From: Endomicrobiia bacterium
Lineage (GTDB): Bacteria; Elusimicrobiota; Endomicrobiia; DTEH01
NCBI GenBank assembly: GCA_039630545.1
Contig: JBCNUU010000006.1
Coordinates: forward strand, 1-64,000
DNA: 64,000 nucleotides
Direction: 5' to 3'
Of the stretch, positions 6,001-15,000 are shown one piece after another. Made by a program: the position numbers. The stretch's first letter is position 1. Every line of letters starts with the position of its first letter.

Positions 6001-9000
6001 CCCTTGAAAGTTCTAAACTCCAATCCAGATTTAATAGTAATTCTCCTTTAAATGTTTTATAGTACCATTCATTAATTTCACTATATATTTTGTTAAGTCT
6101 TCTCTTTATTTCATCTAAATTTGGCAAAAGTGTAATAAATCTTCCACCTGCATTAATTATATTACAAACTAATGGGAGATCTAATTGGTTAAGAATGAAA
6201 TGACTTGTAATATTAGTTAAAATACTTAAATAGAAAGATCTCGCTCTTAACCTTTTACTAATACCTTTCACACCACTATGTGAAAAATTAAAAATATACC
6301 TTTGAATACCACTTAAATCTCCACCTAACAATATAAACTTCTTATCGTTATTCCTAATACTATCCTCTGTAAGAGAATTCTTATTTTTATGAAACTCATA
6401 TAAACAAACAGCGATTGCAGCTGTTGTTTTTAAGTGGTCAAAAAGAGATATGTCAGGAAAATCAATAGTTGAGCTTGGAATACACCAGGTATATTTTTCT
6501 AAAAGAAATATTAGCGAGTTAAGAAATATATTAAAGTCATCTTTAGGAAGGTTTCGAAATTCACTAATAAAGTTTTGCCATAGTTGATTATATTTATTAA
6601 CTAAACTTTTTCCTTCAGGAGGATCTAATTTGCTTATATCCTGAGGAAATACATTATCTTTAATAGGCAATAACGGTCTTATATCATATCTATAAGCATC
6701 AGCAACAGAACCATTACTTTCTAAATTAATTTTTTCAAAGATAGAATGTAATCTTACTTTTTTGTATCTTTCAGATCCTCTAATTTCATCTATTATGTCA
6801 TTTTCTAATCTATCCATACCAGCAGAAATTTTATCAGCAATTTCTATAATGGTTTTTAGAGGAGTGTCTGGTTTGTGATGATATGATGCTAAATTTGCAC
6901 AATTATCTGTTATAATTGATAAAGAAATATTTTTGGGGAAATAATCTTTATTTTTCTCAAAAAATTCGTTTGTCCATATGACATGATGATGAGAATACCC
7001 ATCTTTGCTGTTTTTGTCAGTTGGACAAATAGAAGTTTTCATTCCTATTGATAAAGAAGAGAGTTCACTTTCATTTTCAAATGCACGTTGATAAAACTTA
7101 CCAATATCGTGTAATAATGCAGCTAAAATTATATTGTCTCGTTCATATGAGTTCATAACACTATCTCATACCTCCCTAAGCCGAAGGTGCAGTTTTTGCC
7201 TATGTGGGTATACTGACCAAGGATTAAAAATGGTAGAAAATCTTCAAGAGATTCTTCAGTTTGATAGGTTATTTTTCCTATAAAGCCACTTAGTTCCATT
7301 ACTATTTTTCTTCTCTTAGAGTAACGAAACCATTTGCTCCAAGTGAGGTTATTATTTTTTATTTTAACATTTTTTGCTTTTTTTGTCAACATTTTGTAGT
7401 CAAATTTTATTTCTTGATCACAATAAAAATACAGGATCGCTAAAAGTCTGCGATATACTGCGCGAAAAAGTGATATAAACTGTGGTTCTTTTAAAATTAA
7501 ACCTTGTTCTTTAATTCTTGTCGGAGAAAGAAAATTTAGTGTTATTTCGTTTCTGTATGTCTTTGTGTCAAATTTGTCTAAAAGTTGTTTAAGAGTTACG
7601 TGACTGTTTAAGTTTCTTAATATCCGGTCCTGACTATAAACTACTTCGTCAAAAAAGTTTTTGACTTCAGTAAGTTGAAATTTTGTTCTGTTGTTTTTTG
7701 TTCCTATGCCCTTTTTTGAAAGGTTTTCAAAGGTTAAGATAAAGTAGGGTATGTACTGTGTTGCTTTACCAAAAAGTATAAGATTAAATTCAAACTCTTC
7801 CTGTGGTTGATAAAGATTTTTTGTATGGTCTACTTCTAACACAAAAGGTCTTGGAAGGTCTTTTGTTGCTCCAAAGTTCGGAAGAATTTCTTTAGGGTAG
7901 CTCTCAAATAAGTATACATATACACAGTTTGGTTTTACTATGCATTCGTCGCATTCTTTTGTTTTTTTGTTGATGCAGCAGGTTTCTTTTAAAACACTTC
8001 CAATTGCTCCTCGCAAAATGTTGCCAGGGTATGTAAGTAGCTTAAGCTGGTCTTCAAATTTAATGGTAAATCTATATAATGAGAAATAAAAATTTATATC
8101 TTCATTTATCATACATATATTTGAAAACTTTAATATAAATTTTTCTTGTTGACAATCAATGTTTGTTGTTAAAATTTAAGTTTTTTTATGTTTTCCAAAA
8201 GTAAATCAACTGAGTCGGTCTTTTCCCAGGTGAAGTCTTCATCTGTTCTGCCGAAGTGGCCATATGAGGCTGTCTTTTTATATATTGGTCTTCTTAGTTT
8301 TAGTTTGTCTATTATTTCTTTAACTTTAAAAGAAAATGTGTATTTTATTAGTTTAAGAAGCTTTTCGTCATCTATTATCCCAGTGTTAAATGTATCAACT
8401 GCAATTGATACCGGATCTTCTTTTGCTATACAATAGGCAATCTGTATAAGACATTTTTTTGCAATACCTGCTTTAACTATGTTTTTTGCTACATAACGTG
8501 CCATGTACGCAGCTGAACGGTCTACTTTTGTGGGATCTTTTCCTGAAAATGCTCCTCCTCCATGAGGGACATAACCACCATAGGTGTCCACCATTATTTT
8601 TCTTCCTGTAAGGCCTGTGTCTGCTTGAGGACCTCCTATGGTAAACTTTCCAGAGTTGTTGATGTAAATTTGTGTTTTTGATGTAAAGAAATCTGAGATT
8701 ACAGGTATAACTATTTTTCTTATTATTTCGTCTTTTGCTTCTTCAGACATGGTATCGGTTTTTTTGTCAACTACTTCTTCGGTATGCTGTGCAGCAATAA
8801 TTACAGAGGAAACATAAAGAGGTTTGCCATTTTCATATTTTACTGTAACCTGGGCTTTCCCATCAGGGCCAAGATATGGAAGAATCTTGTTTTTTCTTGC
8901 TTCAGAAAGTGTTTTTGTAAGTTTATGAGCTAAAGTTATTGGCAGAGGCATAAGTTCTTCTGTTTCTGATGTTGCATATCCAAACATTATACCCTGGTCA

Positions 9001-12000: not shown

Positions 12001-15000
12001 AGAGAACAAATAGTTGCGTTAAATGTTATCCAGTAAAGTTCTATCTCTTTGCCTGTAGCTAAAACTGCTGAAATATACCATAAAATATTGTCTTTTATAA
12101 CTTTTATTCTTCGGGTTGAGAGGTAAATATTTATTTTCTTTAATTCGTCACTCAAAGAAACCAGATACTTGTCAAATCTATAAAAGTATTCTTTTACAAT
12201 ATCGTTAAATAATAATTTAGTTTTATGAATTGTATTTTTTAACCAGTTTGTTAACTTGTTGTCTATTTTGTAAATATTTAGACTACTTATTATCTTATAT
12301 TTTATTTTCTCTTCCATTTCATGAAAGTTTGGAAATTTTAGTATATAGTTAAATCTATCTGCTAAGGCAACATCTAAAGGATAGGTACCCTCGGTAACTA
12401 AAGTTTCAGGTGTCTCATCGTCATATTCAAATTTAGGTGGATTCATTGCTGCCCACCTATAGATAAGTTTGTCTAAGTTTATTCCATATATTCGTTTTTC
12501 ATATATAATTGAAAAAAACTTATTTTGAGTATCTGGTTTGCACCTGGAAATTTCATCAATAAATATCGCTTCTTTATCCCAGCATGAACAAGGTAGTTGC
12601 TGATAACTGATTTTACCATTGGGTAGTTTAACAGGATAGCCAATAAGTTCATCTAAATTTAACATTGAAGCATTGTAATGAGCATAATTTAAAGATAAGG
12701 TTTCAAAAAGTTTAAGTGTTAGTTGCGTTTTTGCAGTTCCTGGAGTACCTATCAGTAACACAGGGCATTCCTGTGCCAGAGATGCTATAATAATGTCATC
12801 AAAGTCCTTAAGTCCATAAAGATTTAATTCTTCCGTGATAGATATGGGATTTTTTTTAATAAAGAAAGTGCTTGAGGAGTTATTTAGAATCTGTTTTTTT
12901 GTCATAGGTTTATGAATTCTCCTTTCTAACTTAGATGGAGATCGGCAGTACCACCTTACCTACTTTTTATAAGGTAGGCAGGTTGGTAAGGAAGATATGC
13001 GCCTGCCGGTCATCGCGCTGAAGCAACAATTCATGTTGCTTCACATCTTCCTTTTCGGCATAAACCTACTGAGTTTTAAAGATTTTTCAAAGATGTAAAA
13101 TAATTATGAATATAAAGAAAACAATCTAAGAATTTAAGTTTATGTATTTATCAACTTTATTTACAACTTTAAAGATACATGGGGTTCCTTTTTGAGGAAC
13201 CGCTTTTCCACCTTATTCTACGAATAAAATTCGTAGAACAGGTTGGCACGGAGTCGGTAGCAGGCTTTTCCTGCCGGGGCTGGTTAACACCCCCTTCCTC
13301 CGACTCTTCATGTATCCTACAATTGGCCTTCTGTGAGTATGGCCAAAAATAGGATAGTTTATTTTTAATAAAGTATAAAAATTTTTAAAAAAAGTCAATA
13401 GTTTTAAAAAAAAATCAGTTTTTAAAATTATTTGTTTAATAAAAATTTATTATATATGCTTCAATAAGTGACCTAAACGGTACTTTTTAGAAGAAAGATA
13501 CTTTTTCATGTGTTTTGTTTTGGGCGGGATTTCTATTGGTATGCGTTCTATGATTTTTATTCCGTAACCTTCAAGTCCAACTATTTTTTTAGGATTGTTA
13601 GTAAGAAGGCGAATTTTTTTTACACCTAAATCTGCTAAAATCTGAGCACCAATCCCATAGTCTCTAAGATCAGGTTTGAATCCTAGTTTTAGATTAGCTT
13701 CAACTGTGTCCAGGCCTTTGTCCTGAAGCTGGTATGCTTTAAGTTTGTTTATTAAACCAATACCTCTACCTTCTTGGTGTAAGTAAAGTAGAATTCCACC
13801 TTCCTTCGAAATCATCTCTAAGGACTTATCCAACTGAAGTCCACAATCGCATCTTAAAGAATGTAACGCATCTCCTGTAAGGCAAGAAGAATGCACTCTA
13901 ACCAGAATGCCGTCTTCTATTTTTCCTTTTTGCAGAACAATGTGATTTTCTTTAGTCAAAACATCTTGATAAACGAAAAGTTTAAATGTACCATAGTCTG
14001 TTGGTAAAATTGTACTTACAATTTTCTTTATAAATTTCTCTGTAAGTCTTCTGTATTTTATTAGGTCAGCAATTGTTATAATTTTTAGTTTGTGTCTTTT
14101 GGCAAATTTTATTAACTCTGGAAGTCGTGCCATTGTGCCATCTTCGTTCATTATTTCACATATTACTCCGGCTGGGTAAAAACCAGCAAGTTTTGCTAAG
14201 TCAACAGAGGCCTCTGTGTGACCTGCTCTAACTAGTACTCCTCCCTCCTTGTAAACCAAAGGAAAAACATGTCCAGGACGAACAAAATCTTCCGGTTTTG
14301 CAAGAGGGTCTATGAGTTTTTTTATGGTAGTGGCACGATCATATGCAGAAATACCTGTTGTTATTCCTTCTTTGGCATCTACAGATACAGTAAAGGCAGC
14401 TTCATGTGGAATCTCTGGCTGACATACCATCAGTGGAATTTTAAGTTTAGTCAGTCTTTCTTCCGTTAAAGCTACACAAATAAGACCTCTTGCATATTTT
14501 GCCATGAAATTTATCCAGTAAGGAGTTGCTTTTTCTGCTGGTAGTACAATATCGCCTTCGTTTTCTCTTTCAGGGTCATCTACTACTATTACTGGTTTGC
14601 CTTTTTTTAGTTCTTTTATTGCAGCTGGAATTGTAGCAAAAATTTTATTTTTCATTCATTTAATAAAACCATGTTCTTTCAAAAAATCCAGTGTGATTTC
14701 TTTTTTTGGTTTTGTTATTTCTTTTATGTATCTTGCTAAAATATCTACTTCTATGTTGAATTTATCTTTTGGTTTTTTGTATTTAAGTGTTGTATTATTT
14801 AGTGTAAACGGTACTATCACTACAGAAAATCTGTCTTTTAATTTTTTTGCAACAGTTAAACTTATACCGTCCAGTGCAACAGAACCTTTTTCTACTATAA
14901 AATCATATAAATTTTTTGGCAACTCAAATATGTATTCTTCGTGCTTGATCTCTAATAGCTCTACTATACCGTCTACATGACCAGTTACAAAGTGGCCAGA

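Follow-up and report, generated by a model that had tools for sequence, protein, structure and literature searches.

The described systems closest to the locus analysed here are the SAM-I riboswitch (S-box, RF00162), the MoxR/VWA pairs NorQ-NorD and CbbQ-CbbO, and the MoxR-vWA ternary systems. The available text of PMC9481103 reports 164 doubles among tandem SAM-I arrangements, the accessible parts of PMC9976466 and PMC13036017 present MoxR/VWA pairs as metal inserters, and the available text of Kaur et al. 2020 (PMC7159879) proposes the ternary systems as conflict systems. We compared these systems with an operon in a 64,000-nucleotide stretch of DNA from an Endomicrobiia bacterium (the window); no publication describing this operon was found in the literature.

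As in SAM-I, the window leader lies upstream of a SAM-related operon, has P1-P4 four-way junctions with the J1/2 and P3 core motifs and is predicted to act as an OFF switch; its two aptamers in series recall the tandem arrangements, as far as these are described in the available text. In contrast to SAM-I, neither window aptamer reaches the gathering score, their P2 helices are branched or lengthened by 42-53 nt, aptamer 1 has no terminator behind it, and the regulated genes encode a MoxR/VWA machine. Additionally, an aptamer P4 contains most of the Shine-Dalgarno (SD) sequence and P1 reaches up to the AUG, which leaves no expression platform apart from the aptamer. The genes themselves resemble NorQ-NorD and CbbQ-CbbO, as presented in the accessible parts of PMC9976466, PMC13036017 and PMC4660213, in that the gene for an AAA_5-type ATPase has as neighbours the genes for a VWA protein with a MIDAS and for a candidate client enzyme; the closest folds to the VWA domain are the MIDAS domains of NorD and Rea1. 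However, the window VWA protein has a zincin-like HExxH domain at its N terminus, the gene of a small, conserved third protein lies between those of the ATPase and the VWA protein, the ATPase carries an extension of about 300 aa, control is by riboswitch, and the client is only a candidate. The three-gene logic of MoxR, vWA and a third component is shared with the ternary systems (PMC7159879, available text), as is a weak bpMoxR Pfam match (17.8 bits vs a cut-off of 27), but the window operon yielded no effector domain (beta-propeller, VMAP, iSTAND or other), is riboswitch-controlled and is linked to a metabolic enzyme.

The operon is tightly packed on the minus strand (8169-12905), and the four ORFs claimed in the genome-wide survey's note were confirmed (Table 1). 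In 5' to 3' order, they encode an AAA+ ATPase of the MoxR type, a protein of 157 aa, an HExxH+VWA/MIDAS protein and a second MetK (metK2), with co-directional gaps of 1, 37 and 19 nt. They are preceded by a leader of about 450 nt containing two GC-rich structured elements, and operon and leader are flanked by ribBA (13450-14655) on one side and by cas6 (7153-8112) and cas10 (4607-7156) on the other. The possible promoter was unlisted in a consensus scan because its spacer falls outside the 16-18 nt rule of that scan.

Table 1. Features of the operon and its leader in window coordinates.
Feature	Position	Strand	Evidence
Possible sigma-70-type promoter	13372..13398	-	TTGACT, 15 nt, TATACT; by eye, inferred only
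Aptamer 1, SAM-I-like four-way junction	13172..13318	-	RF01725, model R1, de novo MFE
AT-rich inter-aptamer spacer	13067..13171	-	GC 0.15-0.17
Aptamer 2, SAM-I-like four-way junction	12907-13066	-	RF00162 27.9 bits, MFE
Shine-Dalgarno AGGAG of the AAA+ gene	12919..12923	-	Sequence and Rfam alignment
MoxR-type AAA+ ATPase, 520 aa	11343..12905	-	Pfam AAA_5 42 bits vs cut-off 22
157-aa protein	10868..11341	-	Database form from ATG at 11341; ORF 10868-11371
HExxHxxxxH zincin-like N domain and C-terminal VWA, 481 aa	9385..10830	-	Invariant residues, AF2
metK2, intact housekeeping-type SAM synthetase	8169..9365	-	TIGR01034 512.9 bits vs 309.4 cut-off

The RF01725 match on which the survey had based its riboswitch call was reproduced over the whole model (13147-13318, minus strand, 23.9 bits; gathering score 41.1), with an E-value of 0.47 here when 1.5 kb was searched against all families. 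Model R1, which comprises 13 operon-linked aptamers from other phyla with the window's sequence left out, matched aptamer 1 at 23.8 bits (E 0.0057 in 784 kb) and, with filters off, at E 5e-6 in 701 nt. The stable fold of the element was also recovered (MFE -72.2 kcal/mol for 191 nt, z -6.9); the de novo MFE structure contained the same junction, and none of 200 shuffles was as stable. The 60-nt GC peak was present, with a value of 0.62 instead of 0.65. The helices of aptamer 1 are P1 AGGAUACAUG/CAUGUAUCUU, a branched P2, P3 CCAACCUG...AAGGUGG and P4 GGUUCCU/AGGAACC; a partner for a P2-loop/J3-4 pseudoknot was looked for in this aptamer and was not seen.

The survey had described a single aptamer and missed a second, which aligned to RF00162 model positions 1-108 (27.9 bits, E 1.5e-4 in 211 nt; gathering 44.4) with a J1/2 that deviates from the consensus. 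Aptamer 2 consists of P1 GGUUUAUG/CAUAAACC, a P2 extended by a 53-nt insertion, P3 CCAACCUGCC...GGUAAGGUGG and P4 UCUCC/GGAGA. The MFE structure showed this same junction both for the aptamer alone (z -7.1; 0/200 shuffles as stable) and within the whole leader, and a second 60-nt GC peak of 0.53 was located at 12970-13029. Four of the five SD bases (GGAG, 12919-12922) lie inside the 3' strand of P4, the SD is 13 nt from the AUG of the AAA+ gene (12905-12903), and the aptamer ends 1 nt before this codon; aptamer 2 is therefore a candidate expression platform. The survey had seen no terminator between its aptamer and the AAA+ gene and had named no expression platform; no terminator-like site was found here either in the spacer after aptamer 1, and the platform would be supplied by aptamer 2. 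In the ligand-free ensemble, the SD was already mostly paired (unpaired probability 0.20), and because P4 also folds without SAM, SAM-driven switching at aptamer 2 is only putative.

Judged by sequence and fold, the leader contains two SAM-I-like aptamers, both below the Rfam cut-offs. The scores of 23.9 and 27.9 bits would also suit decayed, non-functional aptamers or chance matches, with expression being constitutive or protein-controlled. A whole-genome RF00162 search that gave nothing at E≤1 points the same way, as does the absence of covariation support for the window helices, no close relative with a tandem leader having been found. We nevertheless regard this explanation as very unlikely, since two adjacent full-length matches lie in the right orientation directly upstream of the operon, the GC peaks of 0.62 and 0.53 rise from a spacer of 0.15, the stability z-scores are close to -7, and operon homologs in many phyla have firm SAM aptamers. 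The SD-in-P4 design is also common to the congener: locus L004 has one aptamer with the common cores CAUGAAGAG, CCAACCUG and AAGGUGG, its SD (GGAGG) is likewise in P4, and its AUG is in the 3' strand of P1. In the congener, aptamer and likely start codon overlap, contrary to the earlier statement that the aptamer ends 18 nt upstream of the AAA gene.

The recurrence of this gene order behind SAM riboswitches in many phyla held for RF01725, RF00162 and RF00521 (two folds) and was also seen with RF01726. In many phyla the operon has a SAM-I/IV, SAM-I or SAM-II/long-loop aptamer in front of it, and another locus has SAM-II and SAM-II long-loop in tandem. Of the 52 genome loci whose leader was visible over 300 nt or more, 22 had a firm SAM aptamer and two more had a weak one. 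The 22 loci with a MetK-like gene had a firm aptamer in 17 cases, a weak one in two and none in three; loci without a MetK-like gene had an aptamer in 4 of 30 cases. At L008, an aptamer is present and the downstream region is outside the view. R1 matched 40 of 80 independent metagenome loci fetched via the AAA+ protein, in every case upstream of the AAA+ gene on the same strand. Control of the operon by SAM is well supported. The other 26 of the 30 loci without a MetK-like gene, mostly from Chloroflexota, showed no aptamer, 19 of the 30 being scanned by a SAM-I/IV-type model only, and an alignment of 30 no-aptamer leaders revealed no conserved motif. The Chloroflexota copies have neither riboswitch nor MetK-like gene, and the triad of ATPase, small protein and VWA/zincin genes is not always tied to SAM. 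The window's own genome contains a second, paralogous triad beside SbcCD-like genes with no Rfam match upstream, so that the triad in itself is not linked to SAM.

The nucleotide-binding motifs of the ATPase are intact (G56/K59, D117/E118, N155, R184 and R265/R266 invariant in 6 aligned homologs), and its C-terminal extension belongs to no family. The small gene follows closely, with a median gap of -4 nt in 63 loci. Its 157-aa product had no Pfam, NCBIfam or PADLOC match and only 5 representatives at E≤1e-3 among 1.84 billion; its AF2 model (pLDDT 82.6) revealed no solved relative (best PDB Z 2.1, best Foldseek E 2.8). The VWA/zincin protein was assigned to no Pfam or NCBIfam family and has a complete MIDAS (D354, S356, S358, T407 and D430). 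The invariance claimed for HExxH and DxSxS was seen again for HExxH...H and DxSxS, in 7 and in 41 aligned homologs. Its AF2 model (pLDDT 81.6) gave a VWA fold match of Z 12, and the top Foldseek matches were the NorD and Rea1/MDN1 MIDAS domains. The two-domain order is that of DUF2201_N (putative metallopeptidase) + VWA_CoxE/DUF2201 proteins; at E≤0.01, DUF2201_N was matched in 32/41 and VWA_CoxE in 31/41 homologs, all below or near the curated cut-offs, whereas the window's own protein matches neither. The DUF2201 literature, in its accessible portion, yielded no functional account, and the families have no assigned function there.

The fold neighbours NorD and BchD (Z 9.7), together with the MoxR/VWA metal inserters in the available parts of PMC9976466 and PMC13036017, bring to mind a chelatase-like inserter modelled on NorQD (iron) and CobST/BchID (cobalt and magnesium), serving a MetK-fold or other SAM-pathway enzyme. 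Such a role is extremely improbable, as HExxH is a zinc-peptidase and not a chelatase signature and the operon encodes no metal-dependent client. The cofactors of MetK are Mg2+ and K+, which need no inserter.

metK2 is a full equivalog-level match to TIGR01034, has the housekeeping pattern in every motif block checked, and is 60% identical to the genome's housekeeping MetK, whose position on contig C45 was verified (584 bits). It differs in being a second copy and in its place in the operon, which in other phyla is occupied by a divergent clade of the MetK fold that scores only 94-181 bits and retains GHPDK, GPDGK, GGPxGDxGLSGKK and GGGAxSGKDxxKxDR. In our tree, 32 operon-linked MetK-likes formed one clade (support 100), and metK2 fell among housekeeping MetKs, nearest to its own genus, which ruled it out as the divergent gene. 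Since the congener retains a frameshifted divergent-clade copy, the divergent gene was replaced in place; on this phylogeny, a canonical SAM synthetase has refilled the fourth slot. The displacement lends indirect support to a link with SAM synthetase. The tree of VWA proteins also favours this link, since loci with a MetK gene are found in all its deep clades and triad-only forms are nested inside them. Against SAM synthetase as the client, exactly one MetK was present in 20/21 genomes whose operon is without a MetK-like gene.

The riboswitch could also serve SAM economy while the client is not MetK: the machine would be a remodeller or protease for low-SAM stress with other targets, such as regulators or proteins that consume much SAM, and MetK a co-regulated passenger. 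This is possible but doubtful. metK commonly stands behind SAM riboswitches, the triad lacks an extra MetK in 39 of 67 loci whose downstream region could be inspected, aptamers occur without a MetK-like gene at L007, L008, L019, L033 and L056, and the invariant HExxH points to proteolysis more than chaperoning. However, the MetK-like and VWA genes are co-inherited with matching tree clades and tightly joined (median gap 10 nt; ≤20 nt in 30/35), and the slot was refilled by another MetK after loss of the divergent gene in the window lineage.

The neighbouring type III-A CRISPR-Cas locus suggests another role, in which phage destruction of SAM or a block of MetK would set off the riboswitch as an alarm, producing a spare SAM synthetase and a MoxR/VWA/zincin effector to clear the inhibitor or to harm the invader or the cell. 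There are precedents in the SAMase of T3, which cleaves SAM and inhibits its synthesis according to the available part of a preprint (10.1101/2023.02.27.530186), and in the ternary conflict systems proposed in PMC7159879 (available text). Defence-like neighbours were found in 6/35 flank-scanned loci (L012, L019, L021, L025, L026 and L033), SbcCD-like genes adjoin the paralogous triad, and an Atlas result, a lead only, placed phage-rich clusters among VWA/zincin look-alikes. We consider this role unlikely, because flanking genes were mostly of ordinary metabolism with the Chloroflexota loci syntenic, viral contigs contributed only 5 loci vs 271 genome stretches, and the congener does not share the cas adjacency. 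In addition, no PADLOC model matched the window's four proteins, only marginal matches for two AAA+ homologs (E 1e-4 to 4e-3) were obtained with 18 operon or adjacent proteins, and the CRISPR locus encodes a CARF effector, as is typical of cyclic-oligoadenylate signalling, and shows no sign of SAM-based signalling.

To the reading of a riboswitch-controlled low-SAM response operon, whose machine acts most likely on SAM synthetase, we assign an even chance. When SAM is plentiful, the aptamers would bind it; SAM on aptamer 2 would lock P1 and P4 and lower AAA+ translation, because P4 holds most of the SD and P1 abuts the AUG, and the rest of the operon would be lowered by coupling or mRNA decay. 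Aptamer 1 may be a second sensor that sharpens the response. After a drop in SAM, the operon would be expressed and metK2 would add SAM-synthetase capacity, while the ATPase, the small protein and the VWA/zincin protein would form one machine of the NorQ-NorD/CbbQ-CbbO type, in which a client would be held by the MIDAS face and remodelled by the ATPase, and may be cut by the HExxH domain. SAM synthetase, either the operon's or the housekeeping copy, would be the likeliest client, and the machine would assemble it, free it from an inhibited state or turn it over. By analogy, we infer that the triad may be an 'activase' of SAM synthetase, a model that leaves the invariant HExxH unexplained. With two SAM sensors placed before the genes for an ATPase motor, a novel small protein, an adaptor resembling a protease and an extra SAM synthetase, the operon therefore has the look of an emergency kit, so far undescribed, that is turned on by low SAM.

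The four minus-strand open reading frames of the operon were re-searched with Pfam and TIGR01034, and the gene description in the genome-wide survey's note was found to be correct (table below). The genes encode a MoxR-type AAA+ ATPase, a small protein, a protein that joins an HExxH (zincin-like) region to a VWA domain, and a SAM synthetase (metK2); the gaps between them were 1, 37 and 19 nt, and the first three are referred to here as the triad. The housekeeping metK that the note had placed on contig C45 of the same genome was also recovered, and it was the higher-scoring of the two at 584 bits. 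We consider the operon to be very probably under SAM-responsive control. The reading that we prefer, in which our confidence is evenly balanced, is that of a low-SAM-induced OFF-switch operon that provides an extra SAM synthetase along with a MoxR/VWA/zincin machine, the likeliest client of which would be a SAM synthetase.

Features of the window and of related loci (L-numbers are fetched loci; positions without an L-number are those of the window)
Feature	Location	Strand	Description
ribBA	13450-14655		flank of the minus-strand operon
UAUCCUAU	13349-13356		strand of a leader helix
GUAGGAUA	13313-13320		partner strand, in P1 of aptamer 1
Aptamer 1	13172-13318	-	RF01725 match 13147-13318
Aptamer 2	12907-13066	-	RF00162 match
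AAA+ gene	11343-12905	-	520 aa; Pfam AAA_5, 42 bits against a cut-off of 22
Small gene	ORF 10868-11371	-	no family; recorded form starts at ATG 11341, 157 aa
VWA/zincin gene	9385-10830	-	481 aa; no family
metK2	8169-9365	-	398 aa; TIGR01034 equivalog, 512.9 bits against a cut-off of 309.4
Promoter-like hexamers	8159-8127		between metK2 and cas6
cas6	7153-8112		other flank of the operon
cas10	4607-7156		other flank of the operon
Type III-A CRISPR-Cas set	269-8112	-	complete
Paralogous triad	L121:4569-8960	-	contig C3 of the window's genome (G000)
MetK-like gene of the congener	L004:7420-8417		frameshift near 7941-7977
Tandem SAM-I/IV aptamers	L077:2429-2760		Gemmatimonadota
SAM-II, then SAM-II long-loop	L157:1245-1421		metagenome locus
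Added small genes	L040:2629-3590; L050:2402-3362; L006:3238-3960		Proteobacteria
Long VWA homolog frame	L045:6007-11097		Hydrogenedentota
VWA/zincin gene without AAA+ gene upstream	L011:3914-5546		Anaerolineae
Defence-type genes, same strand as operon	L019:7527-11159; L012:7536-8924; L033:22-3447		adjoining the operon

The leader upstream of the AAA+ gene contained two SAM-I-like aptamers. The element reported in the note was reproduced, with a match to RF01725 over the full model. This aptamer 1 folded with the SAM-I topology: its minimum free energy (MFE) structure, at -72.2 kcal/mol (z -6.9), comprised P1 (AGGAUACAUG/CAUGUAUCUU), a branched P2, P3 (CCAACCUG...AAGGUGG) and a P4 hairpin. A second CCAACCUG...AAGGUGG was read by eye gene-ward of it, and a local scan gave an RF00162 match there over model positions 1-108 (E 1.5e-4). 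The four-way junction of this aptamer 2 was the MFE structure of its own stretch (z -7.1) and also of the whole leader. The MFE folds gave P1-P4 in both aptamers, each with a full-length model match. Both matches lay below the Rfam gathering cut-off, with 23.9 against 41.1 bits for RF01725 in aptamer 1 and 27.9 against 44.4 bits for RF00162 in aptamer 2. A whole-genome RF00162 search was blank at E<=1, evidently because its first-look filter misses these two insertion-rich aptamers, which cmscan finds locally. The GC content of the leader peaked at 0.62 and 0.53, with a spacer between the peaks at 0.15.

With the SAM-I core taken as P1-AGA(G) in J1/2 and CAACC...AAGGUG in P3, the core was present in aptamer 1 (CAUGAAGAG, CCAACCUG and AAGGUGG); aptamer 2 kept CCAACCUG and AAGGUGG, and its J1/2 (CCGAAAAG) deviated from the consensus. 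In SAM-I riboswitches, the P2 loop pairs with J3/4 as a pseudoknot. By eye, we found CGGCAG in P2 of aptamer 2 to be complementary to CUGCCG in J3/4, and the pair CCGGC/GCCGG in the leader of a congener (L004, a locus from the same genus); no clear P2-loop/J3-4 partner was seen by eye in aptamer 1. A SAM-I/IV-type covariance model, R1, for which only operon-linked SAM-I/IV aptamers were used (13, all from other phyla), matched aptamer 1 at 23.8 bits (E 0.0057 in 784 kb; E 5e-6 on 701 nt), with all pairs but one standard. A DNA search for the leader in two congeners returned nothing, the contig of the closest relative breaks inside the AAA+ gene, and a metagenome scan via the AAA+ protein revealed no relative above 39% identity; no close homolog of the tandem leader occurred in the sequences searched. 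In the MFE structure of the whole leader, UAUCCUAU paired with GUAGGAUA, the 5' strand of P1 of aptamer 1, around a GGCC hairpin; in this folding model, the helix could be a competing 'anti-P1'. Tandem SAM-I riboswitches are already known, with 164 doubles reported in PMC9481103, and the leader in the window likewise has two SAM-I-like aptamers in series.

The note had found neither a terminator nor an expression platform. The former was borne out, as a terminator scan found none on the minus strand from aptamer 1 to the AAA+ gene, while a putative platform can now be assigned from sequence and fold to P4 of aptamer 2. The 3' strand of this P4 (GGAGA) takes in all but one base of the Shine-Dalgarno AGGAG, and the 3' strand of P1, CAUAAACC, stops 1 nt short of the AUG. 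Upon folding, the Shine-Dalgarno was mostly paired already in the ligand-free ensemble. The congener leader contained a single SAM-I aptamer (32.9 bits) with core motifs common to those of the window; there, the Shine-Dalgarno GGAGG lies in P4 and the AUG lies inside the P1 3' strand. The two leaders place the Shine-Dalgarno in P4 with unlike sequences, which indicates that the design is shared. A metagenome copy of the congener leader (L122) showed one U/C difference, by which the P3 pair was kept (G-U versus G-C). That the aptamers are dead is very improbable in view of two full-length model matches, z values of about -7 and a design, with the Shine-Dalgarno in P4, that is common to the congener. 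Under the preferred reading, low SAM would turn the operon on and high SAM would turn it off: SAM would be bound by the aptamers, the Shine-Dalgarno would be sequestered in P4 of aptamer 2, and aptamer 1 may contribute. The spare SAM synthetase would be made alongside a MoxR/VWA/zincin machine that may form a complex, act on a client and use its HExxH. A look-up of RNA runs for 8169-13420 returned none.

Seven homologs of the VWA protein were used as queries; relatives were encoded in 271 genome stretches, 80 of which were fetched. The AAA+ gene was upstream of the VWA gene in 64 of these 80 loci, and the median gaps were -4 nt from the AAA gene to the small gene and 10 nt from the VWA gene to the MetK-like gene. 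Scans with all Rfam families covered 41 genome loci and 20 metagenome loci, and the remainder were scanned with R1 only. The all-family scans revealed SAM-I/IV aptamers at L006, L021, L037, L040, L050, L057, L061, L063, L066, L068, L077 (twice, in tandem) and L079, SAM-I aptamers at L007, L008 and L019, and SAM-II aptamers at L069 and L073; R1 added L056, L042, L010, L033 and L012 (37-78 bits), with L065 and L004 as weak matches. The claim of the note that homologous operons in many phyla stand behind SAM aptamers of unrelated folds was thus confirmed, as these matches place aptamers with two or more unrelated folds before the same operon. Where at least 300 nt of leader was in view, the aptamer was firm in 17, weak in two and absent in three of the 22 loci with a MetK-like gene, and it was present in 4 of the 30 loci without one, 19 of which were scanned with R1 alone. 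An alignment of 30 leaders without an aptamer, mostly from Chloroflexota, showed no common motif. Among 80 metagenome loci fetched via the AAA+ protein (470 relatives), 40 had an R1 match, in every case upstream of the AAA+ gene and on its strand; tandem SAM-II and SAM-II long-loop aptamers were found in one of 20 further metagenome loci in the all-Rfam scan.

Several Proteobacteria carried one or two added small genes between the riboswitch and the AAA+ gene, encoding a DUF3293 protein of ~180 aa and a no-family protein of ~105-135 aa, so the operon is larger there. Burkholderiales or relatives of Rubrivivax are among its carriers. In one Hydrogenedentota locus, the frame with the VWA homolog was open for ~5.1 kb, and its sequence suggests a large fusion protein. 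In one Anaerolineae locus, ICMT/PEMT-type and MetW-like SAM-dependent methyltransferase genes were found upstream of the VWA/zincin gene instead of the AAA+ gene.

In 67 loci, 1200 nt or more of downstream sequence could be inspected; the MetK-like gene was present in 28 of these and absent in 39. That the client is something other than MetK, with MetK as a passenger, seems rather unlikely to us. In the VWA tree, every deep clade included MetK-bearing loci, and the Chloroflexota, Hydrogenedentota/Nitrospirota and L056 forms nested within MetK-bearing loci; this fits a MetK-like gene that was co-inherited with the VWA gene and probably lost, in three changes under a midpoint root. TIGR01034 was searched in 36 genomes of the loci, 15 with an operon-linked MetK-like gene and 21 without. 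In the former, the operon-linked genes scored 94-181 bits, below the cut-off, except for the frameshifted copy of the congener, the two pieces of which scored 68 and 78 bits, and a housekeeping MetK above the cut-off was additionally present in 13 of the 15. In the latter, exactly one MetK was present in 20 genomes and none in one.

A MetK tree of 63 rows, a quick IQ-TREE result that excludes duplicates, fragments shorter than 300 aa and two housekeeping rows that lacked a blastp anchor, gathered 32 operon-linked copies in one clade (support 100). MetK2 of the window was outside this clade: together with an 89%-identical counterpart in L003, it fell inside the housekeeping clade, sister to the housekeeping MetKs of its own genus (support 83). 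As a full TIGR01034 equivalog, its motif blocks matched the housekeeping consensus (EGHPDK, GAGDQG, DTYGG and HGGGAF), whereas the divergent clade had PGHPDK, SDDQS, DxYGP and IGGGAL. The divergent clade nonetheless retained GHPDK, GPDGK, GGPxGDxGLSGKK and GGGAxSGKDxxKxDR, which we take to be the triphosphate- and metal-binding blocks of MetK. The copy of the congener, which is split by the frameshift and may be either a pseudogene or the product of an error in assembly, carried PGHPDK, SNDQS and DFYGP. From the position of MetK2 in the housekeeping clade and the divergent copy of the congener, we conclude that a canonical SAM synthetase replaced the divergent one and took the fourth slot in the line leading to the genome of the window.

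In the ATPase, GTPGTAKT, D117-E118, N155, R184 and R265/R266 were invariant among six homologs, with GxxGxxK kept; these correspond to the Walker A and B motifs, sensor 1 and the arginine residues. Its C-terminus was a long extension of no family. The VWA/zincin protein had a complete MIDAS, with D354, S356, S358 and D430 invariant among 41 homologs and T407 nearly so, and H77, E78, H81 and H86 were also invariant. Its AF2 model (pLDDT 81.6) gave a VWA match with a Z-score of 12.1 and an rmsd of 3.0 over 135 aligned residues, and the Foldseek list was led by the MIDAS domains of NorD and Rea1/MDN1. Although 32 and 31 of the 41 homologs matched DUF2201_N (E<=0.01) and VWA_CoxE, respectively, the protein in the window had no Pfam match. 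Full-length fold searches returned lists filled by VWA-domain matches, and the profile of the VWA/zincin alignment had no match among solved structures at E<=1. A predicted complex of the VWA/zincin protein with MetK2 scored 0.00 against a mark of 0.32, which speaks neither for nor against contact. Metal insertion is an extremely improbable role for the machine. The small protein (AF2 pLDDT 82.6) had no solved structural relative in fold searches, and a sequence search of 1.84 billion representatives yielded no more than five relatives; its profile matched same-position proteins of other phyla weakly (probability 41.6%, E 2.7e-4, 42 columns), with a weak C-terminal motif alone in common. The same genome contained a paralogous triad with an AAA_5 ATPase 36% identical to that of the window, an unknown protein of 384 aa and an HExxH/VWA protein of 536 aa that was 23% identical and kept the MIDAS. 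SbcD-like (Metallophos) and SbcC-like (AAA_23) genes lie downstream of this triad, and the 0.9 kb upstream of it gave no Rfam match.

The type III-A set beside the operon comprises cas6, cas10, csm2, three RAMP genes and a CARF protein (Cas_APE2256), and begins 56 nt past metK2. On the minus strand, the terminator scan from metK2 to cas6 found none, and the interval contained promoter-like hexamers only, so transcription could run on from the SAM-controlled operon into the cas genes. SAM-AMP-type CRISPR signalling was ruled out as the cause of this adjacency, as the locus has csm2-5 and a CARF protein. A conflict or counter-defence role for the operon would be in line with the adjoining cas genes and with the defence-like neighbours in 6 of 35 loci with scanned flanks, but we regard it as improbable: the cas genes form an ordinary CARF-type locus, their adjacency to the operon is not kept in the congener, none of the four window proteins matched PADLOC-DB 2.0 at E<=0.01, and only marginal AAA-type matches (E 1e-4 to 4e-3) were obtained, for two AAA+ homologs among 18 proteins tested from the operons or next to them. 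At three loci, the adjoining defence-type genes encode a 1210-aa Eco57I/MmeI-type methylase-nuclease, an AAA_21/AAA_15 ATPase and a ResIII helicase. It is a long shot that the operon serves as an alarm for SAM depletion and has a repair arm: a sudden drain on SAM (a phage SAM lyase, a MetK inhibitor or another) would open both aptamers, a fresh SAM synthetase would be made together with the ATP-driven machine, and the machine would strip or cut inhibitory partners off MetK, restoring SAM for methylation-dependent immunity; if true, it would be the first dedicated SAM-synthetase remodeller as well as the first counter-counter-defence triggered by a riboswitch.

SAM serves as the main methyl donor, and to our knowledge no helper machine for SAM synthetase has been described. 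A description of the operon was likewise not found in the openly searchable literature, including the SAM-I/IV discovery paper (Weinberg 2010); subscription journals and bioRxiv supplements were outside this search. New for the window are the tandem aptamers with the Shine-Dalgarno in P4 as putative platform, the housekeeping-type MetK that has replaced the divergent MetK-like gene in place, and the paralogous, riboswitch-free triad in the same genome. The riboswitch design is unusual in being compact, with the Shine-Dalgarno inside P4 of a SAM-I-type aptamer and a second aptamer in tandem. That SAM aptamers with two or more unrelated folds occur before the AAA+/small/VWA-zincin unit in many phyla marks the triad as part of SAM homeostasis, and since its partner in the window is an ordinary MetK rather than a divergent paralogue, standard SAM-synthetase assays apply. 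If the client is MetK, the system would join the few MoxR/VWA systems that have a specific client (Rubisco, NO reductase), and would be the first of these with a built-in peptidase domain.
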